Source: a virus
Virus record (IMG/VR): IMGVR_UViG_3300045988_113302
Length of the DNA stretch: 15,851 nucleotides
Direction: 5' to 3' (one strand)
Made by a program: the position numbers and the translations under genes. Positions 1,373 to 15,851 of the stretch are shown in pieces (the stretch's first letter is position 1; every line of letters starts with the position of its first letter). The notes beneath the pieces are model-generated. The model was given only the letters and a program-made list of their open reading frames with translations, made no database searches and had not been told where the DNA came from.

Positions 1373-1859
1373 GGACTACCTCTTAAGTTTGCGGGGAAAA
1401 CAGCGGCGCGAGATGTACAAACAGCTTGTGCCGCTTGCAAATAAGCAGAAAGCACGAATTGAAAAGCAAGGCTTGGAGAAAGAAAGTGTGCTAAATGTAC
1501 TACATAAGCGGACTAACTGGGATATAGATAAGTACAATTCACGCGCTTATCTTAAGTTGGTTCGATTTGTTACAGCGCGCTCTCATACTTTAACTGGGAT
1601 AAAGGAAATAAGGCAGGAACGTACGCAAGCATTACGCGATATGGGAATATCTGAAAATCTGTTAAATGAAGCAGATTTTTATACTTTTTTGCATAGTCAA
1701 GAATACAAAAGTTTAAAAATGCGTAACCCATCGGAGGATATTATCGAAATTTATGATTTACTTTTTTCGCAGGGTAAGTCACATACAGAAATACAACAAG
1801 AATTGCAAGAATATTCTAGCGCTACACATGTCTATGTAAAGGGGAGAGCTTTATGGTAA
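1362..1859 (+). CDS. Putative terminal protein (replication primer); start uncertain (ATG 1362 or TTG 1341)
   Basis: A basic 165-aa ORF immediately upstream of the protein-primed polymerase. Its stop overlaps the polymerase start (ATGGTAA at 1853-1859). The call rests on synteny with phi29 gene 3/gene 2 only; no sequence motif was recognised and the RBS is weak. Confidence 0.4.
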   Translation: MYNKDYLLSLRGKQRREMYKQLVPLANKQKARIEKQGLEKESVLNVLHKRTNWDIDKYNSRAYLKLVRFVTARSHTLTGIKEIRQERTQALRDMGISENLLNEADFYTFLHSQEYKSLKMRNPSEDIIEIYDLLFSQGKSHTEIQQELQEYSSATHVYVKGRALW

Positions 1860-4039
1860 TATCTGTACAGCAGACTAAAAATGGAAAAGAAACGATTGAA
1901 ACTAAAGAAACAGTGTATTCTGTAGCGTCATACCCATATGACGCTACAGTTTTAGATTGTACTACAGTACGGAAAAAAGGGCGAAATGGACTTACATATA
2001 TAGCGCGTCCGGCAACGTTTGACATAGAAAGTACAACTATAGACGGCGAAAAACCAGAAGCATTTATGTATCATTGGCAGTTTTGCTTGAATGGTAAAGT
2101 CTGTTTTGGGCGAACTTGGGAAGAATGGATAAATTTTATGCATAAGCTAGGAACTACTTTGGAATTGGACGCTAAAAAAGTGTTAGTAATATATGTCCAT
2201 AATTTAGCTTATGAATTTATGTTTATAAAGGATTTTTTGCATATAGAATCACTTTTTGCGAGAGAAGCGCACAAGGTTATTAAAGTTTTAGCTTGCTTGG
2301 GTAATGATTACGGGAAAAGTATAAATAAAGTTGGGAATGTTTCACGTGAAACATTTCTTCTTCCCTTTTTTGAATTTAGGTGTAGTTATTTTTTATCAAA
2401 TATGTCTTTATCTAAATTTTGCGAAAATAGCAAATTTTGCACACACTATAAATTAGTAGACACTTATGATTATAGAAAAATACGGACACCGTCGACGCCG
2501 ATGACGGAGGAAGAATTAGCGTATTGTTATAACGATGTAAAAGGTTTAGAAGAGTGCATTTTGTCGAAATTAGATGACGAGTGTGACACGTTAGCTACCA
2601 TACCTTTAACATCGACAGGATACGTGCGGCGAGAAATGCGTGCAGAGTGTCGAAAATATCCAGAATATCGCGAACTTTTTGAAATACTTATGCCTACTAC
2701 GCAAATTTATACGTTATTGCGTCAAGCGTTTCGTGGCGGCAATACTCATGCGTCAAGGTACTATGCAGATGCCGTCATAGAGGGAGTTTTCAGCAAAGAT
2801 AGAGTGTCTAGCTATCCGGCATGTATTGTATCTGATTTATACCCAATGACACCATTTATAGTGTACGAACCTAAGTCTTACGCACAACTTATAGCGGATT
2901 GTGGAAAAAAGAAAAATGCTATAATAATGCGTATAACTTTATTTGATTTAGATGTGCACGATGATGTGACCGTGCCATATATTGATTTTGCGCACTGTAT
3001 AGCCTACAGTAAAAATTATGTAAATGATAACGGACGAGTGTTATCAGCCGATTGGATAACATATGCTTGTACAGAGTTGGACTTTTTAATCATAAATAAT
3101 CAATATAGCTACGATACTATGCGCCTAGAATGGCTAGAGGGCTACAAGGCAGAGAAAGACTACTTGCCTAAACCCATAGTTGACACAGCTCTTTCTTATT
3201 ATGACAAGAAAACACAATTAAAAGATGTGAGTGGAAAAGAATATGAGTATGCAAAAAGCAAAAATAAGGCTAATTCCGTTTTTGGTGTTATGGTTACAGA
3301 TATATGTCAAGGCGAAATAGAATATATAGATGGCGTTTGGTCTAAGACTATGCCGGATAAGGAAAGTGCTATAGCGGCTTACGCCGCAAGCAAAAACTCT
3401 TTTTTGCTTTATCAATGGGGAGTTTACATTACAGCAAATGCGCGCTATGAACTGCAATGCATGATTGATGCTTGCGGCTATGATTTTGTGTACACAGACA
3501 CGGATAGTGTAAAATTTATTGGTGAAGAACATTTAAAATCTTTTGACGACAGAAATAATTATTTATTATCCAAAAAACAAAAGTACAGAAATTATAGTGA
3601 TCGTTTAAACGATGATGGCACAACAACGCGATACACGCTCGGTGTATGGGATGATGATGGTTTTTATAAAAAGTTTAAAACATTGGGTGCGAAAAAGTAT
3701 GCATATATTGCGGACGAGAAAAACAAAAAAACCGGAGAGATAGAAGAAGTTTTACATGTCACTGTTTCCGGCTTATCAAAAACAAAAGGCGCGGCAGAAC
3801 TTGCGCGTGGAAATGGCTTAGCTGATTTTAAAATTGGCAAAATATTTACTGACTCGGGGCGCACAGTGTCATACTTTAATGAGAGCGATGTACATACTAT
3901 AAAAGTAGTAGATTACAATGGAAAAGAAAGTGAGTTTACCACAGCGTCAAACATAGCAATAGTTGATACTACTTATACTTTAGGTGTATCTGACGAGTAC
4001 GCCGCCGTCTTAGGCTCTTGTATAAATTTTTTTGAATAA
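1853..4039 (+). CDS. Protein-primed family-B DNA polymerase (phi29 type)
   Basis: Exo I FDIES, Exo II HNLAYEF, Exo III YCYNDV, motif A DRVSSYP, motif B KxxxNSVFG, motif C YTDTDS and KxY LGAKKYAY occur in the canonical order. It is 728 aa, longer than the phi29 enzyme. Confidence 0.93.
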   Translation: MVISVQQTKNGKETIETKETVYSVASYPYDATVLDCTTVRKKGRNGLTYIARPATFDIESTTIDGEKPEAFMYHWQFCLNGKVCFGRTWEEWINFMHKLGTTLELDAKKVLVIYVHNLAYEFMFIKDFLHIESLFAREAHKVIKVLACLGNDYGKSINKVGNVSRETFLLPFFEFRCSYFLSNMSLSKFCENSKFCTHYKLVDTYDYRKIRTPSTPMTEEELAYCYNDVKGLEECILSKLDDECDTLATIPLTSTGYVRREMRAECRKYPEYRELFEILMPTTQIYTLLRQAFRGGNTHASRYYADAVIEGVFSKDRVSSYPACIVSDLYPMTPFIVYEPKSYAQLIADCGKKKNAIIMRITLFDLDVHDDVTVPYIDFAHCIAYSKNYVNDNGRVLSADWITYACTELDFLIINNQYSYDTMRLEWLEGYKAEKDYLPKPIVDTALSYYDKKTQLKDVSGKEYEYAKSKNKANSVFGVMVTDICQGEIEYIDGVWSKTMPDKESAIAAYAASKNSFLLYQWGVYITANARYELQCMIDACGYDFVYTDTDSVKFIGEEHLKSFDDRNNYLLSKKQKYRNYSDRLNDDGTTTRYTLGVWDDDGFYKKFKTLGAKKYAYIADEKNKKTGEIEEVLHVTVSGLSKTKGAAELARGNGLADFKIGKIFTDSGRTVSYFNESDVHTIKVVDYNGKESEFTTASNIAIVDTTYTLGVSDEYAAVLGSCINFFE
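2336..2355. repeat. Palindrome copy A (AATGTTTCACGTGAAACATT) inside the polymerase ORF
   Basis: A 20-bp perfect palindrome with the 18-bp core ATGTTTCACGTGAAACAT at 2337-2354. It is read in frame as NVSRETF between the Exo II and Exo III motifs. Confidence 0.9.
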
Positions 4040-4042
4040 TAG

Positions 4043-4069
4043 TTGACAAAATAGAAAAGGGCTTATAAT
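4043..4069 (+). promoter_or_regulatory. SigmaA-like promoter P2
   Basis: TTGACA at 4043-4048 and TATAAT at 4064-4069, with a 15-nt spacer. The overlapping ATAATA and TAATAA give 16-17 nt instead. Followed by the ATAATGTAAG leader shared with P3. Confidence 0.6.
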
Positions 4070-4120
4070 AAATAATGTAAGAGAACAAATAAACAAGCAT
4101 AAGAAAGAGAGGAAATAAAC

Positions 4121-4294
4121 ATGAGAAGAACATTTTATGAGAAAGTAAAGAAGTATGGCTCGGTTGACACCAGAAAGTATAGATATGTGTTAGAGGACTA
4201 CGGGAACGTAGCGCGCTTGCCACTTGAATATCTGGACACTACAAGAGCGGAAGATGGATGGAAAATTATCAAAATTCCGGTGGAGTGGAAATAA
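4121..4294 (+). CDS. Small basic hypothetical protein (57 aa), below the ORF-track cutoff
   Basis: ATG 4121 follows the strong RBS AGAAAGAGAGGAAA found on other first genes. It translates as MRRTFYEKVKKYGSVDTRKYRYVLEDYGNVARLPLEYLDTTRAEDGWKIIKIPVEWK. The stop TAA at 4292-4294 overlaps the next ATG (TAATG). Confidence 0.6.
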   Translation: MRRTFYEKVKKYGSVDTRKYRYVLEDYGNVARLPLEYLDTTRAEDGWKIIKIPVEWK

Positions 4295-4479
4295 TGACAA
4301 TAAAGTTAATAACTGATTGGCTAATATCTTGTTATGAGACAGGCTACCTGTCTTATAACGAGATACGAAATGACAGAATTTTCTTTAAAATTCACAGATA
4401 CTTTCCGCGCGCAAATCCAAAAGAAGCGGAAGAAGCAAGAAAACGCGCAATTATGTATATAGAGAGGACAACAGTATGA
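4294..4479 (+). CDS. Hypothetical early protein (61 aa)
   Basis: The track ORF 4258-4479 is trimmed to the ATG at 4294, which overlaps the upstream stop. Its 3' end overlaps the next gene by ATGA. Confidence 0.5.
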   Translation: MTIKLITDWLISCYETGYLSYNEIRNDRIFFKIHRYFPRANPKEAEEARKRAIMYIERTTV

Positions 4480-4679
4480 AAATAAGCAAAGATGAGGCAG
4501 TGTATGCAGTGCTGAAAATGGTGCTTAATGAACAAGTTAGCTTACGTATGGTTTACGATGATTTATGGTTATATTACTTGTTAGTAGGCTTGGATTTATC
4601 GAAACAAGAAGTGATAGACGCTGAATACGAGATAAAAGAAGCAATCCTAAATTGTCTGAAAGAAAATTTAAAAATTTAG
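4476..4679 (+). CDS. Hypothetical early protein (67 aa)
   Basis: ATGA overlap with the upstream gene and GAGAGGA upstream. No recognisable motif. Confidence 0.5.
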   Translation: MKISKDEAVYAVLKMVLNEQVSLRMVYDDLWLYYLLVGLDLSKQEVIDAEYEIKEAILNCLKENLKI

Positions 4680-4689
4680 AAAAAATTTC

Positions 4690-4717
4690 TTGACATTTCC
4701 GGCAATGAGCGTATAAT
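4690..4717 (+). promoter_or_regulatory. SigmaA-like promoter P3 (TTGACA, 16-nt spacer, TATAAT)
   Basis: TTGACA at 4690-4695 and TATAAT at 4712-4717. The leader TATAATAGATAATGTAAGGAACA is homologous to those of P1 and P2. Confidence 0.7.
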
Positions 4718-4776
4718 AGATAATGTAAGGAACATACAAAACAATAAACAACAAAACAGAAAGTGAGGAAAACAAA

Positions 4777-4959
4777 ATGAAATTACATGATTTAGTACTT
4801 AGTAATTTAGAGTATATGTCGGATACAAAATTAGAAATATATGACTATGAAGTGCCGCGCATGATTGCATTTGGCACATCAGCAAAACTAATAGAAGATG
4901 GTTATGGTAATTATCCTGTTAAATTTTTTAATGGTATGCGAATTTACGTTTTGACATAA
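4777..4959 (+). CDS. Hypothetical early protein (60 aa)
   Basis: RBS AGTGAGGAAA 8 nt upstream. It is the only gene in the P3 unit. Confidence 0.5.
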   Translation: MKLHDLVLSNLEYMSDTKLEIYDYEVPRMIAFGTSAKLIEDGYGNYPVKFFNGMRIYVLT

Positions 4960-4968
4960 TAAGCCGAA

Positions 4969-5007
4969 ACGCCCTAAGGGGCGTCACGTACAAGGGTTGC
5001 AACCTTG
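4969..5007 (+). terminator. Two tandem hairpins after the early genes (terminator or RNA-stability candidates, no T-run)
   Basis: ACGCCC-TAAG-GGGCGT at 4969-4984 and CAAGG-GTTGCAA-CCTTG at 4991-5007. Neither is followed by a U-tract, so the function is uncertain. Confidence 0.35.
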
Positions 5008-5085
5008 CGTCTGATGATGGTAAGCAACACACAAACAAGCCTACAGAAATCTAGCAAAACAAAAAAGAAAGAGAGGAACAACACA

Positions 5086-5382
5086 ATGAAAGCACCGTTC
5101 ACAAGAACAGTAACCACATCGGTTGATTATGATGTGGTAACAGTATCTACCAAGGGAATTGAAGTTCTCGACCATCTGCATTTACCGGACGAACTCGATA
5201 CGGCTGCTAAAAAGGCAATCGAGAAGAAGCACTCTGGCAAAAAGATTCAGTTTATCGAATCTGGCAGAACAGAGGAAAAGCGCTTCATTTCCTATGAGGA
5301 TTTCATGGCGCACTCTATGACGGAAAAGGACTGGAACGATCACAAGGCGGCAACAGTAGAGTCTGCACCGACTTCCAAGTAA
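5086..5382 (+). CDS. Hypothetical protein (98 aa)
   Basis: The track ORF 5005-5382 is trimmed to ATG 5086, which follows AAGAAAGAGAGGAA. Codon usage is richer in GC than the flanking genes. Confidence 0.55.
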   Translation: MKAPFTRTVTTSVDYDVVTVSTKGIEVLDHLHLPDELDTAAKKAIEKKHSGKKIQFIESGRTEEKRFISYEDFMAHSMTEKDWNDHKAATVESAPTSK

Positions 5383-5386
5383 GTAA

Positions 5387-5404
5387 ATGTTTCACGTGAA
5401 ACAT
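5387..5404. repeat. Palindrome copy B (ATGTTTCACGTGAAACAT)
   Basis: An 18-bp perfect palindrome 4 nt after the stop at 5382 and 38 nt before ATG 5442. No T-run follows it. Confidence 0.9.
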
Positions 5405-5441
5405 AACTAACACAATTTAAATAAGAAAGGAAAATTAAACA

Positions 5442-5870
5442 ATGTCAAGCAGAAAAATCAGAGGAATCGTAAGAAACATTTTTGTCAAAGATGACAACGA
5501 AGTATCAATTTTAATCGAGATCGACGAGAAAACAGCGGCAGAGCTCCGCGGCGTGTATGATGCAAAGATCGAAAACCCGCTCAAGGATGGAGAGGGCGAA
5601 CTTGAGGGTAAGGTGCTGTACAAGGCGCATACGAAATATCCGGTAAACCTCTACATGCAGGGCGACCCTGTGGAAACAGATGATGATGACGAAACCATTG
5701 AGGAAATTCGTAAGATCGGCAATGGTTCGGCTGTTACAATTCGTGTACGCGAACAGTTAGACGGGCGGTACAAGTCCAAGAAATTCCAGTCTGCTTATCT
5801 CAAGGCGATCAATGTACGCGAGCTTGTAGAAGCAGAGCCCTACATGGATTTTGACGAAGATGACAATTAA
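5442..5870 (+). CDS. Putative ssDNA-binding protein (acidic C-terminal tail)
   Basis: 142 aa with an internal DDDDE stretch and the extreme C-terminus DFDEDDN, a tail typical of phage and bacterial SSBs. It sits in the replication/early block. This is inference only. Confidence 0.35.
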   Translation: MSSRKIRGIVRNIFVKDDNEVSILIEIDEKTAAELRGVYDAKIENPLKDGEGELEGKVLYKAHTKYPVNLYMQGDPVETDDDDETIEEIRKIGNGSAVTIRVREQLDGRYKSKKFQSAYLKAINVRELVEAEPYMDFDEDDN

Positions 5871-5880
5871 ATAACGATCA

Positions 5881-6192
5881 GCCGCAGAACTGCCATCCAA
5901 CCGCATGAAACAACATACATGCAGTAGAATGTCATTAAATGGCAATAAACGGCATTGCACAGCACTGAATGTTGTGTGATGCCGATGGATGGCAGATAGG
6001 CGGGTGTATTGCATTACGGGTATTGGATAGTTATTTTGTTTCTCGTTTTCCTCCGACTTGCCTTAGTCGAAAATGTCCAGTTTTTATGTCAACCAGTACC
6101 CGTAATGGAGTATTACCCGCTATCCCGTTAAAGCCCCGTACACCATGCGGAAAAACGCAGGGGTGCAGAGTGGTGTCTGCAAGGATAGCGGC
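5881..6192 (+). ncRNA. Unclassified structured RNA candidate with three closed helical domains; possible pRNA analogue or structured holin leader
   Basis: It lies in a 356-nt gap with no credible ORF. Domain 1: 5882-5885/6000-6003, 5890-5899/5986-5995 (10 bp) and hairpin 5950-5984 (14 bp, 3 G-U). Domain 2: 6012-6026/6093-6107 (15 bp, 1 G-U) and hairpin 6054-6058/6065-6069. Domain 3: 6117-6125/6183-6191 (9 bp), 6134-6137/6160-6163, 6146-6149/6156-6159 and hairpin 6165-6169/6176-6180. The bulge CACCA at 6141-6145 is complementary to the loop TGGTG at 6171-6175. The G-U pairs would be A-C mismatches on the minus strand, which argues for a + strand RNA. Confidence 0.55.
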
Positions 6193-6226
6193 GAACCTCT
6201 AAAATTAAATAAGGGAGAGTAAAAAG

Positions 6227-6550
6227 ATGATTTATTTAATTACTTTTTTGTTTATGGTTCTGGATTTTATAAGCGGAATCGTAATGGCAGTGAAGAACAA
6301 GAATTTCAATTCTTCCATTATGCGGGAAGGGCTTTTCAACAAGTTCGGTTCTGTTTGCGTGATTGCTTGCGCGGTGCTGATTGACTGGGGGCAGATTTAT
6401 CTTGATATTGGTTTTACCGTTCCGGTAGCGTCTGCAATGTGCAGTTATATTATTCTCATGGAAATCGGTTCGATTTTGGAAAACGTAGGAAGAATAAATA
6501 AGAACTTAGTACCCGAGAAAATCCGGTCGATATTAGAAAAGGTTTCATAA
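6227..6550 (+). CDS. Holin (Phage_holin_4_1 / LL-H-TcdE-like, 3 TM)
   Basis: 107 aa with three hydrophobic segments. Motifs are DFISGIVMAV, SS..REG...K and EIGSILENV, typical of that holin family. RBS GGGAGAG. Confidence 0.8.
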   Translation: MIYLITFLFMVLDFISGIVMAVKNKNFNSSIMREGLFNKFGSVCVIACAVLIDWGQIYLDIGFTVPVASAMCSYIILMEIGSILENVGRINKNLVPEKIRSILEKVS

Positions 6551-6570
6551 TGTTTCACGTGAAACATTAT
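6547..6570. repeat. Palindrome copy C (ATAATGTTTCACGTGAAACATTAT, 24 bp)
   Basis: This is the longest copy. It overlaps the holin stop codon (6548-6550) and abuts tRNA position +1 at 6571. Confidence 0.9.
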
Positions 6571-6641
6571 TGGCGCGTAGTTCAGAGGGAGAACAGTAGA
6601 TTTTGACTCTATAGTCGCGGGTTCGATTCCCGCCGCGCTAG
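6571..6641 (+). tRNA. tRNA-Gln (anticodon UUG)
   Basis: Manual cloverleaf. Acceptor TGGCGCG/CGCGCTA with U1-A72 and one G-U. D arm GTTC-AGAGGGA-GAAC. Anticodon arm GTAGA-TTTTGAC-TCTAT, with U33, TTG and A37. Variable loop AGTC. T arm GCGGG-TTCGATT-CCCGC. Discriminator G. No encoded CCA, and a T7 run follows. Confidence 0.85.
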
Positions 6642-6662
6642 TTTTTTTGGAGGAAAAGAGAA

Positions 6663-7730
6663 ATGAAGTTTACAAGACCTTATTACAATTTAGATGAAAT
6701 TAAAAGTGTAAAAGATTTAGATGGTTGCGAACCGATCTTGAGAATGATTATTGGAAACCGTAGCGCCGGAAAAACCACGGCTTTATTGATTGAAAGCTTG
6801 AATAAACATAAAGAGGATAGATCGCAAGTTGTATTTTTATACAGAACACAAGACGAGATAGCAAGCAGTGGCAAAATGTATGAAGATGTTTTTGACAATT
6901 ACCCAGAAATGGGTAAAATGGTTACAAATAAAAGTGTAGTTAAAGGGCTTATTAGCGCTATGATTTTACATGACGCAGAGGAAAATCAAAGCGTTTTAGG
7001 CTATGCGGTTTATTTTAACAATCCCGATAAAATCAAAAAATATAGCCCTATGTTTAAAGATGTAAATTTGATTGTTTTTGATGAATTTGTACTTGAAAAC
7101 AATGGTTATTTAAAAAATGAGATAACTAAGTTTGAAAGCGTTTTGCGTAGTATATGCCGTGGCAAAGGTAAGCAAGTGCGTGATGTTCCAGTTTACATGC
7201 TTGCGAACTATGTAGTTTTGCTAAACCCATATTATATATTTTTTGGTATGCACAAACGATTGCGTGATAATACAAGGTTTTTACGCGGTCATGGTTGGGT
7301 AGCACAATTTACTATCAATAAAAGTGCTCAGAAAGCGCTTAATGAAAGCGGCTTAAGTAAAGTTTTTAGTAATAGTGCGTATACGCTATCATCCGCTGAT
7401 GGAATTTATCTATGTGATGCCACGGCTTTTGTTGAAAAAATCAGTGGAAACAGTAACTATATTTTTACTCTTGTATGTGGGAAAGATCGTTTTGCTGTAA
7501 GAGAGTATCCGGAAAAAGGAATAGTTTATATTGACTACACAGCAGACCCAAACGCAAGACATATTTTTACATTTGACCCATCAAGCCACAATGCAGATAC
7601 GCTTATGTTATCGAGTAAGTCTTTTATTTATGATTATTTAAAGAGGGCTTATGATATGGGGCTATTGCGTTTTAAAGATTTGAAGTGTAAGAATATTGTG
7701 TTGGATATTTTGAGTGTGAGGTTGATGTAA
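6663..7730 (+). CDS. DNA encapsidation (packaging) ATPase, phi29 gp16-like
   Basis: Walker A GNRSAGKT and Walker B LIVFDEF. NPYYIFFG, VYIDYTADP and GLLRFKD match remembered gp16 motifs (IVFDEF, NPYFLFF, YIDTAHDP, GYLRFDN). RBS GGAGGA. Confidence 0.88.
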   Translation: MKFTRPYYNLDEIKSVKDLDGCEPILRMIIGNRSAGKTTALLIESLNKHKEDRSQVVFLYRTQDEIASSGKMYEDVFDNYPEMGKMVTNKSVVKGLISAMILHDAEENQSVLGYAVYFNNPDKIKKYSPMFKDVNLIVFDEFVLENNGYLKNEITKFESVLRSICRGKGKQVRDVPVYMLANYVVLLNPYYIFFGMHKRLRDNTRFLRGHGWVAQFTINKSAQKALNESGLSKVFSNSAYTLSSADGIYLCDATAFVEKISGNSNYIFTLVCGKDRFAVREYPEKGIVYIDYTADPNARHIFTFDPSSHNADTLMLSSKSFIYDYLKRAYDMGLLRFKDLKCKNIVLDILSVRLM

Positions 7731-8852
7731 ATGGCGGCTATAAAAGATTACGGATATATTAAAGCAACATGGGATGCACTTGCGGGATTGATACCTAACG
7801 AGATAGGGCGTGCCGGACTGTTGGGAAATTGGTACGCAGAGAGTAAAGTCATACCATATATTAAACAAGGCAATACACGACCACCGTGGTCGCCTAGTAC
7901 AACTTACACTAATAATGTTGATAACGGTATTATTAGCAAAAGTTCATTTATTAACGATTCTGTTGGTTACGGATTCGCACAATGGACGTATTGGAGCAGA
8001 AAAGAGTTAATGTATACTATCGCGGAAAATTTAGGCATGAGTATAGGCGCTTTTGATGTTGGTATAGCAATGGTAACTAACGAGATGACGCAAGGCGCAC
8101 AAGAATATAAAGATACTTTAACAGTGTTGTTAAATGCTACAGATATAAGAACGGCTAGTGATCGAGTACTACATCATTATGAAAAACCACAAGACCAGAG
8201 TATAAATGCGGAGATAGAGCGAGCTGATTATGGCGATCAAATCTACAATTTGTTGCATGGTTCTGCACCAATCGAAAGAAAAAGCTTGACAATTACACCG
8301 ACTAGTGCTAGTATTATAGACGGGGGAACTGTTACAATTAGTGTTGAAGCGACCGGAGAATGGGCGTATAGCTTAGGGCAGTATCTCTCACTTGTAGAAA
8401 AAACTGACGGCGCGCTTGTAATTAGCGGAAATGCACAGACAGCGCAGATTACAACCGCCGTAGCCTTTTGGCTTGTGGATGATGCCAGTGTGCAGGCACA
8501 GTGTCAAATTGGTATCAACCGATCAGCACCACCTGCACCAACTATCAGCGTTACGCCATATAGTCAGACCGCAAATGTAAACACGATTGTTAGATTTATG
8601 GTAAGCGCTAACAGAGCATGGAGCGTTAAAGTACCTAGCGGTGCTAGTTTGTATCGTAAAGACGGTAACTCGGTTTATATTTTAATAGGTAATACCGCTT
8701 TAACCAGAATTGTCTTAAGATTTTATATCAATGATGATGTGAATATCTATCAAGATGTACCAGTAAATATATTGGGCGTGTCGCCAATTCCGAGCAGCAG
8801 AAAAACGCCTTTAATATATTATTTAAAACCATTTTTTAGAAAAGGGAGGTAA
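7731..8852 (+). CDS. Tail-associated peptidoglycan hydrolase (Phage_lysozyme2-type N-domain plus two beta-sandwich-like repeats)
   Basis: GLLGNWYAES, GYGFAQWTYWSR and HHYEKP resemble the phage tail lysozyme family. The C-terminal half holds two roughly 85-aa segments of similar pattern (LTITPTSASI... and ISVTPYSQTA...). Confidence 0.7.
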   Translation: MAAIKDYGYIKATWDALAGLIPNEIGRAGLLGNWYAESKVIPYIKQGNTRPPWSPSTTYTNNVDNGIISKSSFINDSVGYGFAQWTYWSRKELMYTIAENLGMSIGAFDVGIAMVTNEMTQGAQEYKDTLTVLLNATDIRTASDRVLHHYEKPQDQSINAEIERADYGDQIYNLLHGSAPIERKSLTITPTSASIIDGGTVTISVEATGEWAYSLGQYLSLVEKTDGALVISGNAQTAQITTAVAFWLVDDASVQAQCQIGINRSAPPAPTISVTPYSQTANVNTIVRFMVSANRAWSVKVPSGASLYRKDGNSVYILIGNTALTRIVLRFYINDDVNIYQDVPVNILGVSPIPSSRKTPLIYYLKPFFRKGR

Positions 8853-8855
8853 AAG

Positions 8856-9146
8856 ATGACAGTAGACGAAGCTTTGAAAGCGATCTTAGGAAAGATCGAA
8901 GCGCCGGAGGAATTAGACGAAGAAATCAACGTAATCACGGAGTCAATCAGAAGTGGCGCAAACGTAACCGACGACGGCTACAAGGAACGCTATGAGGGCT
9001 TGCGCGAAAAGTACATTGCGCGTTTTGGCGAGATGTTAGCCGGACAGGAAAATCCGAGAACGGACATTGAAGAACCAAAAGCAGATGTTGAAGTGATCGA
9101 GGACGTAACGCCGGATATGCTCGATTTTGACGGCAGTACAGAGTAG
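8856..9146 (+). CDS. Putative scaffolding protein (phi29 gp7 position)
   Basis: 96 aa, very acidic and with helix-prone composition. It lies directly upstream of the capsid gene. RBS GGGAGG. Confidence 0.6.
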   Translation: MTVDEALKAILGKIEAPEELDEEINVITESIRSGANVTDDGYKERYEGLREKYIARFGEMLAGQENPRTDIEEPKADVEVIEDVTPDMLDFDGSTE

Positions 9147-9166
9147 AGAAAGTGAGGTAGAAGAAA

Positions 9167-10444
9167 TTGGCTAATAAAGTAGCGGCAACAAACGTTGCCA
9201 TATTAAACGCAGTGAGATCTATGCAAAGTCTGGAGTATCGGGACAGGATTCCCGAAGCGACGGCGGAAAATATCTCAAGTATCTATGAAAGTTTGCTCAA
9301 CATAGTTCCGTTAAGAAATGCGTTTGCTAACGCTTTGGTTGAGCAAATTATGGAGCAGAGAATCGAAACCGTCTTTTTTGAGAATCCTCTGGGAGTGCTT
9401 AAGAGAGATCCGATGCGATACGGCGGCACAGAAGAAGAAATTTTTATCAATATGGCAAAAGGTAAGCAGTTTAACCAGTTCGCAACCGTTGCAGAACTGT
9501 ATGCCTACTATCAGTCAAGTGTCATGGCGGCGTATCACAAGATCACACCCGCTATCCAGTACGCGGTTACAGTCACTTTTGACAACTTGCGTACAGCGTT
9601 TAGATCAGAGTATGGTGTGCGCGATCTGATTAACGCAAAAGTACAGTCACTTTTTGCGGCGGCGAACTGGGATGAATACCTCTGTATGAAGCGTCTTATT
9701 GAGAGCGCAAGTGCAGCAGATCAGCTTTACGCGGTTAATGTTGCAGACCCTACAGCGAGCGCAGAAAACGCTAAAAAGCTGACAAAGCTTGTAAAAGCCT
9801 ACATCGGACAGATGAAATTTCCCCATCCAGAGTACAACATTGCCGGAGCAGACAGTTGCGCAAACGATCAGACTATCTTTTATATCACTACGCCGGAGAT
9901 CGACGCAGAGTTAGACGTTGAGGTACTTGCCACAGCGTTTAATATGGACAAGGTGGATATTAACGTCCGCAAGATCATCATTGACAAGTTTGATGACCCG
10001 AACATTAAGCTTGCGTTATTTGACATGAGATTTTTCAATGTGCGCGAGAATTTTCGGACACTGACGGATTCGAGAAATGGTGCGGCGCTGACGTGGAATT
10101 ATTTTTACACGATGTCTGAAATGTTTTCCTATTCTCCATTTTTCCCTTGTATCGTCTTTACCACAGACACCGTCGGGCTTACAGCCGTGAGTGTTACAGA
10201 CACCGCCGGAAACGTGGGAACTGATGTGGAGATCACGGCGTTAGTAAGCGGAGACAGCCAGTACACGCCGCAGATGCTTGACTATGACGTTGAAGGCGCT
10301 ACAAGTCAGTATACGTCCTTTATCCCCGGTTCAAATATTTTACATATTGCAAATGATGAAAAAACGGCAACACTTACGGTCAAAGCAACGTCAAGATATA
10401 ATAGCACGATCAGTGGGACAGGTACTGTCACAGTCAACCAGTAA
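9167..10444 (+). CDS. Major capsid protein with C-terminal Ig-like (BIG2-like) domain; TTG start
   Basis: 425 aa, following the scaffold as gene 8 does in phi29. The C-terminus (LTAVSVTDTAG...ATLTVKATS...GTGTVTV) looks like a bacterial Ig-like domain. RBS GTGAGGT is 8 nt before the TTG at 9167. Confidence 0.8.
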   Translation: MANKVAATNVAILNAVRSMQSLEYRDRIPEATAENISSIYESLLNIVPLRNAFANALVEQIMEQRIETVFFENPLGVLKRDPMRYGGTEEEIFINMAKGKQFNQFATVAELYAYYQSSVMAAYHKITPAIQYAVTVTFDNLRTAFRSEYGVRDLINAKVQSLFAAANWDEYLCMKRLIESASAADQLYAVNVADPTASAENAKKLTKLVKAYIGQMKFPHPEYNIAGADSCANDQTIFYITTPEIDAELDVEVLATAFNMDKVDINVRKIIIDKFDDPNIKLALFDMRFFNVRENFRTLTDSRNGAALTWNYFYTMSEMFSYSPFFPCIVFTTDTVGLTAVSVTDTAGNVGTDVEITALVSGDSQYTPQMLDYDVEGATSQYTSFIPGSNILHIANDEKTATLTVKATSRYNSTISGTGTVTVNQ

Positions 10445-10472
10445 AATGTTTCACGTGAAACATTGATTTTTT
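10445..10472 (+). terminator. Palindrome copy D plus T-run: likely intrinsic terminator after the capsid gene
   Basis: AATGTTTCACGTGAAACATT at 10445-10464 is followed by GATTTTTT. It is the only copy with a U-tract. A second hairpin, AGGGGAG-TGCAATG-CTCCCCT, follows at 10474-10494. Confidence 0.6.
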
Positions 10473-10509
10473 GAGGGGAGTGCAATGCTCCCCTAGAAAT
10501 GAGGGAAAC

Positions 10510-12195
10510 ATGGATAGCATGATACCTATGCCAACACAAAAAAACGTAGACGGGATAGCACCTGTTGCACAAGTAAGAATCTGCCGCGGGATTCCTTGGG
10601 ATTCGTCGTATAACCATGTAAGGCTTTTTAATAGTCGAGAAGAACTTTTTGCTTATGTTGATAGCAAAGCAATTTATAGTACTGATAATGCCGCGCCAGT
10701 TAAGAGAGGTTACGCGGATTTTGCCGCGCCCGTCAACGAGTTATACGCCGATAGCGCTAACTATATCGCATTTAAAAATGTTGGATATATGGATAATTGG
10801 ATGTACGGCTTTATTACGAGCGTAGAACCGTTATCCGTGAACTCTTGCCGCGTGCATTTTATCATGGACGTCTGGACGAATTGCCAATTCGATATGGTGC
10901 TAAATAAGTGCTATATCGAACGCCAGATTGTAAAAAAGAGTGAAGATGTGATAGGGCGGTATACTTTTCCAGAGGGATTGGAGACCGGAGATTATATCGT
11001 AAAACAAGAGACAGAACAAAATTATGATGCGCCGGAACTAAGTGATCGAAACATTATGAGCGTTGTCGTTCCGAGCGCATTTGACGAGAGCGGAAATTTT
11101 AACGGCGGCGAATTTAGAGATGGCGTGTATACTGCCATCACTTATAACGTTTTTGATAATGGAGACGGCGTAAACGAATTTTTAATTTCTGCTAACGCAA
11201 ATGGTACTATTGACGGAATTTTAAACGCGTTTATGATGCCAAGCAGCTTTATCGCAGAGGAAACACAATTCAAGCAACTTAATCTACCAAAAAAGTATGA
11301 CAGTATTGACGGCTATGTGCCGAAAAACAAAAAGCTGTTTTGTTATCCATATAACTTTTTATACGGAAACAACAACAACGGCACAGGAATAGAGTATAAA
11401 TATGAGTATTTTTCCAGTGACGCTTGTAGTTTTACTTATACAGTAGCTATGACACCTAACCCACTATTAGTGTCCTACCCCATCCAGTATAGAGGATACA
11501 CCGTAGATTATACCGATATGCTTACATTTTCGGACTATCCAAAATGCGCCATCATGACAGACGCATACAAGGCATATATTGCGCAAATGACAAGCACCGC
11601 GGGCGCGAGCGCTTTAATGAGCGCGGGAAACGCGGTTTCGCAAGGTGTTGACACTGCCACCGGAGTTTTTAGCGGCGTTGGAAAAGCGTTATCTGGTGCG
11701 GGTTTTGGTTTTTTGGGTGCGGCGGCGAGTGGAGCGGGAAACGCCATAGCAACAGGAAAGCAAGCCGCAAGTGACGCTTTTAAGTCTAGTCCATTAAGTA
11801 CTCTTGGTAGCACTGATTGGTCTGATGTTATCGGGAACGGTATAAAGGCGGTAGTTAATCATTTTTTACAGCCGAGTGGAAACGTCACAACTGCTAGCGG
11901 TAATGCTAGTAAGATCATCGGAAACGATCACATTAGCTATTATCCGATGCAAATTCGAGCAGAGTATGCGCGGAAGATTGATGACTATTTTACCATGTTT
12001 GGGTACAAGATTGGAGAGATCGGACAACCCGCAATCAACAATAGATCGGCATGGGATTTTGTCAAAACACGTAATTGCACGATCAGCGGTAACATTGACC
12101 TTGATTACCTTGTTGTTTTACGATCAATATTTGATCGCGGTGTGACAATATGGCACACTAATGACATCGGTAATTATGGGCTTACAAACAATTAA
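10510..12195 (+). CDS. Tail knob / distal tube protein, phi29 gp9-like
   Basis: The N-terminus VRICRGIPWDSSYNHVRLF...ANYIAFKN...NWMYGFITSVE...VHFIMDVWTN parallels the remembered gp9 N-terminus (VRILADVPFSNDY...FQNADYGNKWFYAFVTELE). A Gly/Ala-rich hydrophobic loop lies near nt 11581-11790. The start is set at ATG 10510, after GAGGGA. Confidence 0.82.
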   Translation: MDSMIPMPTQKNVDGIAPVAQVRICRGIPWDSSYNHVRLFNSREELFAYVDSKAIYSTDNAAPVKRGYADFAAPVNELYADSANYIAFKNVGYMDNWMYGFITSVEPLSVNSCRVHFIMDVWTNCQFDMVLNKCYIERQIVKKSEDVIGRYTFPEGLETGDYIVKQETEQNYDAPELSDRNIMSVVVPSAFDESGNFNGGEFRDGVYTAITYNVFDNGDGVNEFLISANANGTIDGILNAFMMPSSFIAEETQFKQLNLPKKYDSIDGYVPKNKKLFCYPYNFLYGNNNNGTGIEYKYEYFSSDACSFTYTVAMTPNPLLVSYPIQYRGYTVDYTDMLTFSDYPKCAIMTDAYKAYIAQMTSTAGASALMSAGNAVSQGVDTATGVFSGVGKALSGAGFGFLGAAASGAGNAIATGKQAASDAFKSSPLSTLGSTDWSDVIGNGIKAVVNHFLQPSGNVTTASGNASKIIGNDHISYYPMQIRAEYARKIDDYFTMFGYKIGEIGQPAINNRSAWDFVKTRNCTISGNIDLDYLVVLRSIFDRGVTIWHTNDIGNYGLTNN

Positions 12196-12210: not shown

Positions 12211-13101
12211 ATGAAAAATCAATCTAAAGACGCTGAATATTTTAGCGTACCACAGTATCGCAATTATTATGTGCGTTACTTTAATATGTTGCATGAAATG
12301 ATCGTGAACCGATTTGAATGGTTGGGATTGCCGGATGAAATTCCACCGAGAGTATTGGAAGATTATCTTTTCTGGTGGGGACAGGCTGTCTTTTTTAAAG
12401 ATGATGTACTAGAAAAATACGCCGCTATGAAAACCAACCTTGGCGGTACTGTAGATATTTATGGCGTACCTAGCATGCGTTTCGCCTATGCACAACAGTA
12501 TTTTAAAACGCTTGGAAAAAATAACAGTGTCATCATCTGGGATAGTAGCGTAGGTTATCCTAGCATTGACTATGTGCAGATGTACGCGGAAAGTTTGGCA
12601 AATATGAGGATGACAAGAAATTTAAATATTTACGCGCAAAGAACGCCTGTTGTTATTGCGGGTAGCGAAAATCAGCGCTTAAGTACAAAAAACCTTTTTA
12701 AACAGTATAATGATTTTGTACCATTTATCAGCGTTAAAGACGGAATTAGTAACGTTGAGAACATGAAAGTACTAAATCTAAACCCACCTAACGTGTTCGG
12801 TGACCTTACAACGGCTATGAGACAAGAAATTGCAGACTTTTGCGTGCAGTTCGGTATTAGTAATATTGACGGCACAAAAAAAGAGCGACTAATTACAAGC
12901 GAAGTAGAGCAAGATGCAGACCTTACGTTAATTAACCGCCAGTCTTTTTTAGGTGTACGAAAACGCGCTTGTGAACAGATTAACCGCCTGTTTGGACTTG
13001 AGGTTGATGTGCGCTACATCGGTAGCGGACTTGGCGTTGAGAGAAAAGAAAACCTTGAGAGAGGGGGCGGAGAAAATGGCGACATATACAACCAGAATTA
13101 G
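12211..13101 (+). CDS. Portal / upper collar (connector) protein, phi29 gp10-like
   Basis: FEWLGLPDEIP, NIYAQRTPVVIAGSENQRLS, KKERLITSEV and RKRACEQINRLFGLEVDVRY parallel gp10 motifs (FEWENLP, NQNAQKTPVLI, KKERMVTDEV, REEACEKINELYGLNV). Confidence 0.9.
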   Translation: MKNQSKDAEYFSVPQYRNYYVRYFNMLHEMIVNRFEWLGLPDEIPPRVLEDYLFWWGQAVFFKDDVLEKYAAMKTNLGGTVDIYGVPSMRFAYAQQYFKTLGKNNSVIIWDSSVGYPSIDYVQMYAESLANMRMTRNLNIYAQRTPVVIAGSENQRLSTKNLFKQYNDFVPFISVKDGISNVENMKVLNLNPPNVFGDLTTAMRQEIADFCVQFGISNIDGTKKERLITSEVEQDADLTLINRQSFLGVRKRACEQINRLFGLEVDVRYIGSGLGVERKENLERGGGENGDIYNQN

Positions 13102-14924: not shown

Positions 14925-15554
14925 ATGTATAAGAAAGACTATCATCCAGACGAAAATTTAATTTTTGAGACAGAACACTATCAGTTTCCGGTGTCCAAGA
15001 GTACCACGGAAGACCCCGATCTTGAAAGAACTGTAAAAATCGACGAAGCGCTATACGATGAAGCAAAAGTAAGGTTAAACGAAGATACAAAACTAAACAA
15101 AAAAATTGATGATGAAACCAAAAACAGAGAAAACGCTGACCAGTCGTTGGAATCAGAAATCTATAAAATAACGCCAAGTATCAAATTTTTGTATTTTGGT
15201 AAAGATGATTTTACCACGTTAAGCGGTTCTCCGGCAAATGTAGAAGTTTATATAACAATGCTAAAGATAAATGATATTATTATTATGTTTCATAGAGTTA
15301 TATTTACTGGGAATGCTCCAAGTAATTTTATTTCTTACACTGCACAACTAGATCTGACAAAAGTAATACAGAGCGGCTACAAGGTAAGCAATTTTACTAT
15401 ATGGCAATCTTTAATACACAAAGACGATAACATTTTAGCTACTCGTAGCAATAATATACAAATTATAAACAATAATAAATATCTGTACTACCAAACGCAA
15501 GAACCTACTGGATGCGTTTTTTGCGGTACTACAATTTGCATGTTATCGGAATAA
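14925..15554 (+). CDS. Second putative fibre / receptor-binding protein (209 aa)
   Basis: RBS GAGAGGAG. It is the terminal gene of the structural block, with a short charged helical segment followed by a very AT-rich C-terminal domain. Its stop codon TAA (15552-15554) forms the first three bases of ITR-R. No motif was recognised. Confidence 0.45.
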   Translation: MYKKDYHPDENLIFETEHYQFPVSKSTTEDPDLERTVKIDEALYDEAKVRLNEDTKLNKKIDDETKNRENADQSLESEIYKITPSIKFLYFGKDDFTTLSGSPANVEVYITMLKINDIIIMFHRVIFTGNAPSNFISYTAQLDLTKVIQSGYKVSNFTIWQSLIHKDDNILATRSNNIQIINNNKYLYYQTQEPTGCVFCGTTICMLSE

Positions 15555-15851
15555 GTTATCCACAGCAAACAAGTGTTCGATAGTGTTCGCCCACCAGAGA
15601 CAGGTTGTGTCCGCGGTGGACGGACACTTTTTGTTTTAATTGTATATACAATTATGATAAATTGTTCTATTGTCTGGTTTCAACAAAATCAATAGTAAAA
15701 GTGCATAAAGTTTTTACATATATTTGTGCAATATTACTATTGACATCTTATGATTGATCAAGTTTCCCGTAGCGAATTTAATATCTGAAAATCGAACAAG
15801 TGTTTGTATTTTTGGGGAAAACAGTGTCCGCGGTACACGGACTATGTAACT
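15552..15851. repeat. Right inverted terminal repeat (ITR-R), 300 bp
   Basis: Exact reverse complement of 1-300. Confidence 0.95.
15607..15637 (+). terminator. Rho-independent terminator of the rightward transcription unit, embedded in the ITR
   Basis: GTGTCCG-CGGTGGA-CGGACAC (7-bp GC-rich stem) is followed by TTTTTGTTTT. The mirror copy at 225-245 would stop only leftward (minus-strand) transcription. Confidence 0.75.

Follow-up and report, generated by a model that had tools for sequence, protein, structure and literature searches.

Four host-type parS sites in a phi29-like phage genome without detectable partition genes of its own

A palindrome in four copies on a phi29-like genome

The IMG/VR virus record IMGVR_UViG_3300045988_113302, hereafter the window (the whole stretch of 15,851 nucleotides (nt) that was analysed), is a complete linear genome of 15.85 kb from a phi29-like podophage of the protein-primed type, and carries four exact copies of a palindrome whose core matches the chromosomal parS site of bacteria. 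This assignment is based on hallmark genes detected with Pfam and PHROGs and on the inverted terminal repeats (ITRs): positions 1-300 are the exact reverse complement of 15552-15851, and this perfect 300-bp repeat therefore marks the window as a complete linear genome of the protein-primed type. All of its genes lie on the plus strand. The sequence-only reading of this DNA had described four exact copies of an 18-mer, too many for chance, that extend to longer palindromes and mostly adjoin stop codons, with a U-tract at one of them; our re-examination bears out each of these points. An exact scan for ATGTTTCACGTGAAACAT returned four sites and no others, at 2337-2354, 5387-5404, 6550-6567 and 10446-10463 (copies A to D), against an expectation of 0.01, and none of 200 dinucleotide-preserving shuffles of the window reached four copies. 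No further match was present in the window even when up to three mismatches were allowed. The sequence around the copies extends them to palindromes of 20, 18, 24 and 20 bp, respectively, and the similarity ends there.

Copy A (16-bp core at 2338-2353) lies in frame inside the uninterrupted open reading frame (ORF) of the type-B DNA polymerase (polB; 1853-4039, 728 amino acids; Pfam and PHROGs). It is not intergenic, a detail that adds to the earlier description. Its codons, AAT GTT TCA CGT GAA ACA, specify N-V-S-R-E-T between the Exo II and Exo III motifs, and the polymerase homology runs across it. The other three copies stand 0-4 nt from a stop codon by the ORF coordinates. Copy B begins 4 nt past the TAA (5380-5382) of a gene for a p6-like dsDNA-binding protein (5005-5382; a weak PHROG dsDNA-binding match) and 38 nt before a gene for a single-strand-binding (SSB)-like protein (start at 5442). 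Copy C, which with its extension spans 6547-6570, overlaps the holin TAA (6548-6550; Pfam and PHROGs) by 1 nt; it occupies the 19-nt gap between the holin stop and a tRNA-Gln gene (UUG anticodon; 6570-6642, the only Rfam match at the gathering threshold), ending 2 nt ahead of the latter. Copy D begins 1 nt past the TAA (10442-10444) of the gene for the Phi29-type major capsid protein (Phi29_MCP; 9167-10444; Pfam and PHROGs), and is followed by TGATTTTTT and then by a GC-rich hairpin (10474-10494). A run of six T after the stem is found at copy D only; copy A has a weak T-rich tail in a pattern scan, but is intragenic.

Identity of the palindrome as parS

The inner 16 bp of all four copies read TGTTTCACGTGAAACA, a 16/16 match to the consensus chromosomal parS, the binding site of ParB (Spo0J). 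A full-text literature search with the palindrome core matched only papers on ParB and parS. The Bacillus subtilis parS consensus is TGTTNCACGTGAAACA, with equivalents across many phyla (PMC7022226), and TGTTTCACGTGAAACA is the exact string that has been used for mapping parS in gut Firmicutes; these include Lachnospiraceae, and all of them have ParABS (PMC10197239). The agreement reaches beyond the core: a 22-bp parS substrate used in vitro, GGATGTTTCACGTGAAACATCC, shares the A/T flanks of the 18-mer (Jalal et al., preprint), so that the extended 18-22-bp form in the window matches the in-vitro form. Domain searches of the complete genome detected no ParB, ParA or recombinase domain in any ORF, and the window accordingly has no detectable counterpart of the ParB (and usually ParA) that chromosomal-type parS sites have on their own replicon. 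The four palindromes are very probably sites bound by the ParB of the host.

Conservation among close relatives

We compared the window with 37 close relatives, defined as IMG/VR contigs with 95-99% identical capsid proteins. Their genome-wide nucleotide identity to the window is ~76-83% over about three quarters of the genome, and four of them are much closer (L121, L123, L131 and L157). Against this background, sites A to C, compared in 35-36 relatives, stand out from flanks whose identity overall is 46-75%: site A is 96% identical (flanks 63-74%; 35 relatives), the 16-mer of site B 99.5% (flanks 46-51%; 36 relatives) and that of site C 99% (flanks 66-70%). The motif is thus kept at orthologous positions in related phages at A, B and C, and is mostly degenerate or deleted at D. 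Site B has persisted in a region (4.8-6.2 kb) that is not alignable in most relatives, and site C is kept though the C-terminus of the holin and the downstream tRNA vary between relatives. As a side observation, the slot of the tRNA-Gln gene holds a different tRNA gene in many close relatives (among L121-L157), with parS C ahead of it unchanged. The surroundings of site B (~4790-6216) form a hypervariable early region comprising the p6-like gene, parS B, the SSB-like gene and a non-coding stretch. It is non-homologous at the nucleotide level in most close relatives, and the distance between B and C is still 1137-1166 nt.

The coding-embedded copy allows the constraint on the DNA to be separated from that on the protein. 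Where the encoded residue is the same, 96% of comparisons show an identical polB codon under site A, vs 64% over the whole gene, and these codons rank among the top 2% of 5-codon windows. By this measure of synonymous codon identity, site A is under DNA-level constraint on top of the protein constraint. Site D is the least constrained of the four: it is perfect in three relatives (L121, L133 and L155), degenerate in ~20 (one to three mismatches or an indel) and deleted in ~13. The GC-rich hairpin behind it, GGGGAGTGCAATGCTCCCC, is kept in all relatives but one, including those without parS D, and is probably the real structural element of the intergenic region after the capsid gene.

parS sites across phi29-like phages

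A scan of IMG/VR with the 18-mer matched at least 120 contigs. Among the 120 listed, ~45 are phi29-like phages with 22-45% protein identity to the window and one to five perfect sites each. Several contigs outside the phi29-like phages (L010, L022, L052, L109, L011 and L030) carry tight clusters of 3-12 consensus parS in ~1-5 kb; these look like plasmid-prophage or origin-proximal centromere arrays, unlike the dispersed phage sites.

To obtain a sample independent of the motif, we took the 80 nearest capsid relatives from a capsid alignment, 72 of which (~1.0 Mb) fall outside the clade of the window and have capsids with 30-47% amino acid identity to its own. These 72 contigs contain 97 perfect 16-mers, where base composition would predict 0.0003, along with a further 29 sites with one mismatch and 10 with two. 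At least one perfect parS is present in 34 of the 72, with up to six per genome, and 82 of the 97 perfect sites have A and T at positions -1 and +1. More than half of the perfect sites (58) are intergenic, though only ~9% of the sequence is, and 37 lie in coding sequence. Single mismatches cluster at the outermost base, which leaves the 14-bp parS core known from streptococci and mycobacteria (PMC7022226), while the centre is conserved; among double variants, only 2 of 14 are compensatory. As read from these aligned variants, the pattern is the signature of a protein-recognised duplex and not of a hairpin.

A gene-content association over 61 contigs found no phage protein cluster that tracks parS across clades; it returned only clade-specific clusters, none of them with a Pfam ParB or other domain. 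With neither a detectable ParB or ParA in the phage nor a protein cluster that follows the sites, their only plausible reader is the host ParB (Spo0J).

The positions of the sites turn over between clades, with two contexts that recur. One is directly past the stop of the gp16 ATPase gene, as in four distant IMG/VR lineages, at position 6015 in L250, 5912 in L257, 6136 in L266 and 4803 in L309, and also at 10528 in CS229P1 (L312) and 17243 in phi29 (L310). The phi29 site at 17243 adjoins the bidirectional terminator TD1. The other is the 3' end of the connector gene, at 10445 in phi29, 10042 in Nf (L313) and, in three remote contigs from the gut, 9777 in L286, 11318 in L288 and 11242 in L289, a homologous place at which all encode NVSR(G/E)T. 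The polB copy of the window is in the same reading frame as these connector copies (NVSRET), and the window's own connector gene has no site.

Cultured phages, counted at up to one mismatch, give a mixed picture. The B. subtilis phages phi29 and Nf have four (of sequence TGTTTCACGTGGAACA) and two sites, respectively, and phage MG-B1 of B. weihenstephanensis has two, with one mismatch each. A single site is found in CH17P1 (Hungatella), CS229P1 (C. symbiosum) and CI55P1 (Clostridium_AQ), and the Enterococcus phage Athos (L318) has one perfect and one single-mismatch site (positions 4788 and 1252). No site was found in susfortuna (C. perfringens), Cp-7 (S. pneumoniae), Reje (Curtobacterium) or BD811P2 (Bifidobacterium). 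For phi29, our count of four consensus-matching sites compares with five in the account of that phage in PMC2731898.

Remaining gene content and predicted host

The other genes recognised with Pfam and PHROGs, all on the plus strand, encode an Amidase_3 endolysin (391-1110), the Gp16 encapsidation ATPase (6663-7730), the gp9 tail knob (phi29_gp9_C; 10471-12195), the connector (12211-13101), a lower collar protein and a tail lysozyme. Perfect ITRs of 45-321 bp are present in many relatives. A repeat of 300 bp is long for a phi29-like phage: the ITR of phi29 is 6 bp, and those of Cp-1-like phages are a few hundred bp. A DNA search matched no near-identical phage in GenBank; the nearest cultured relatives by capsid, at ~31% identity, are the Hungatella phage CH17P1 and the Clostridium symbiosum phages CS229P1-3.

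Two further features deserve mention. Between the SSB-like gene and the holin lies a stretch of 356 nt (5871-6226; G+C ~44%) whose sole ORF, of 77 amino acids, is implausible. It is a candidate packaging RNA and is not alignable in most relatives; Rfam gave no match at E<=1 over 5800-6300. Within the first 100 nt of the long polB ORF, a perfect hairpin with a 13-bp stem followed by TTTT occupies 1920-1949. Since the polymerase homology begins only at residue 54 of this ORF, the true polB start may be downstream of the ORF start, and the hairpin may terminate the transcript of the preceding gene.

The host group is predicted to be the Lachnospiraceae, because full-length homologues of the endolysin (49-54% identity) occur almost only in genomes of this family (Roseburia, Acetatifactor, Merdimonas and others). 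A capsid search for a phage episome or host gave no match in 185k bacterial genomes. Sporulation is common to many Lachnospiraceae.

A probable role in the use of host ParB and its alternatives

We consider it likely that this phage, in which no ParB was detected, carries host-type parS for the host ParB to segregate the phage DNA, comparable to phi29. After injection, ParB dimers supplied by the host, probably a Lachnospiraceae bacterium, would nucleate at the four sites, close as clamps dependent on cytidine triphosphate (CTP) and spread across the 15.8-kb genome. The host ParABS system, plus the origin-capture machinery in sporulating cells, would then treat the phage DNA as an origin-proximal region, and a non-integrating, nominally virulent phage could in this way reach daughter cells by partition and/or become enclosed in the forespore under conditions that do not allow lytic growth. 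The window is of the phi29 type in being a protein-primed podophage with multiple host-consensus parS. For phi29, the relevant account in PMC2731898 gives five parS sites, involves Spo0J in the prespore segregation of the infecting genome and has Spo0A silence the lytic programme. By this analogy we infer a similar outcome for the window, and we put the chances that the pay-off is segregation or spore entrapment, as opposed to some other use of ParB, at about even.

Several observations weigh against this interpretation. For this phage both the host and the binding by ParB are predictions from sequence. The trait is dispensable, because parS is missing from about half of the sampled phi29-like contigs and the clade of the window itself is losing site D. 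Shared ancestry inflates the conservation statistics. Nor is the tie to sporulation exclusive, as Athos has a perfect parS though its Enterococcus host is non-sporulating, and susfortuna of C. perfringens has none. Finally, the Spo0A boxes at early and late promoters that belong to the phi29 spore strategy are lacking here: the box TGTCGAA is not enriched in the window (two vs 2.0 expected), and both occurrences are inside polB.

The last two points bear equally on the possibility, which we regard as unlikely, that host ParB is recruited for a benefit other than genome partition. The sites could act as a ParB sink, in which many phage copies with four high-affinity sites each would draw ParB away from the origin of the host and so upset its segregation and the control of its replication, or ParB bound to them could load SMC condensin or in some other way organise and position the phage DNA as it replicates. 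The same evidence of parS identity applies to this option, ParB-parS is a known SMC loading site (PMC10197239), and parS in a phage of a non-sporulating host together with the unenriched Spo0A boxes makes a spore-independent role plausible. However, the sole experimental precedent cited for the phi29 family, as given in the phi29 account of PMC2731898, is prespore segregation.

The remaining explanations, all raised by the sequence-only reading, would make the parS match incidental or secondary or would assign the sites to the phage's own regulation or rearrangement, and they have fared less well. It is very unlikely that the palindromes work as RNA hairpins at transcript 3' ends, i.e., as weak terminators or stabilisers. 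Three copies do adjoin stop codons, as do 25 of the 97 sites in the wider sample (<=5 nt past the stop), where the intergenic share of 58 of 97 far exceeds ~9%; copy D has its U tract; and the folds beat those of shuffled sequences (z of -2.3 to -3.5). Yet a 16/16 match to parS that recurs about 100 times across lineages is not incidental, and proximity to stop codons is to be expected where genomes have almost no non-coding space. The stems are AT-rich with folding energies of -7.9 to -12.3 kcal/mol, A to C lack a U tract, and 37 of the 97 sites are inside genes. Moreover, the would-be loop ACGT is conserved and the double changes are not compensatory, whereas the GC-rich hairpin that persists where D is deleted is the likelier terminator. 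Intrinsic (Rho-independent) termination was likewise rejected as a candidate function, given stems with two to three G-C pairs and the same folding energies, six T only at D and the intragenic position of A. An operator for a dimeric phage or host regulator of the early/late switch had also been proposed. Its dimeric host protein survives in the form of ParB/Spo0J, whose consensus the 16-mer is; the early/late role does not, as the sites show no overlap with promoter-like elements and one of them is in polB, with others, in other phages, in connector genes. For a phage-encoded regulator (e.g., p4- or p6-like) one might point to the perfect palindrome, the intergenic positions and the weak p6-like gene just upstream of copy B, but lineages that differ in their early genes and share 22-45% protein identity have all retained this 16-mer, and no protein cluster co-occurs with it; we view such an operator as highly improbable. 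Least credible of all is a function in recombination, be it at module boundaries or in the deletion or inversion of the cassette between B and C. Relatives do differ greatly in sequence around B and C, but of 320 homology-block ends from the 37 relatives none comes within 25 nt of any site, and the breakpoints cluster elsewhere, at ~1058/1362, 4113-4295, 4780, 6216-6250, 7728, 8274, 14140 and 14910. Neither deletion nor inversion of the cassette was seen: the B-C spacing given above is constant across the 34 relatives with both sites, its holin end aligns collinearly wherever a relative covers it, and domain searches of the ORFs found no encoded recombinase.

Significance and comparison with known systems

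Host-type parS is already published for phi29 and Nf. A literature search outside subscription journals found no paper that reports it for gut or other Salasmaviridae-like phages, only the work on phi29 and Nf and general mentions. The present case, a new member of this known kind, is notable in that the sites are numerous and perfect, that one of them is embedded in a gene and that the trait is so widespread in uncultured phages of the gut. An anonymous repeat becomes a specific, testable case of putative host hijacking, in which a virulent phage without partition genes bears the centromere signal of its predicted host. The phi29 example has been viewed as a curiosity of Bacillus; the same device, more strongly developed, is found across a large radiation of uncultured phi29-like phages of the human and animal gut, with Lachnospiraceae as predicted hosts. 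We would tentatively generalise, at somewhat less than even confidence, that carrying several perfect copies of host parS is an adaptation common among the strictly lytic phi29-like phages that infect gut Firmicutes; by this means they would ride ParABS, in the form of linear episomes that do not integrate, into daughter cells as well as Lachnospiraceae spores, with the spores as a vehicle of persistence and person-to-person spread. Should the sites function as they do in phi29, they would supply a means by which "virulent" gut phages could persist stably and be transmitted together with spores. Such phages can be sought by a simple sequence marker, either the 16-mer or, for coding copies, the peptide NVSRET, and the C. 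symbiosum phage CS229P1 and the Hungatella phage CH17P1, with one site each, offer cultured models.

Among known systems, the partition loci of plasmid-prophages of the P1 and N15 type, and the clustered arrays in IMG/VR, likewise place centromere-like sites on a phage genome for extrachromosomal maintenance. However, such elements encode their own ParA and ParB, and their sites are specific to the element and grouped in a single tight cluster (as in L010, L022, L052 and L109), whereas the window has host-type sites, dispersed over 8 kb, without par genes. The centromeres of chromosomal ParABS systems have a 16-bp sequence identical to that of the window's sites; unlike them, the latter are on a viral genome, away from any oriC and on a different replicon from the cognate ParB. 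The nearest counterpart is the parS of phi29 and Nf with its Spo0J-dependent spore entrapment (Meijer et al. 2005, as cited in PMC2731898), from phages that belong to the same family as the window by capsid, gp9, connector, gp16 and polB. The window differs from phi29, with its TGTTTCACGTGGAACA sites, in that its four sites are all perfect symmetric consensus with A/T flanks and stand at non-orthologous positions, in that its genes are all on one strand and Spo0A boxes are not enriched, and in that it is known from sequence alone, with a predicted gut Lachnospiraceae host in place of Bacillus. The two are alike in having several dispersed host-chromosomal parS on a small linear genome that encodes no detectable ParB, and in the setting of these sites, which are partly intergenic by stop codons and partly intragenic; in phi29 itself, one site directly follows the gp16 stop and another is in the 3'-terminal part of the connector gene.

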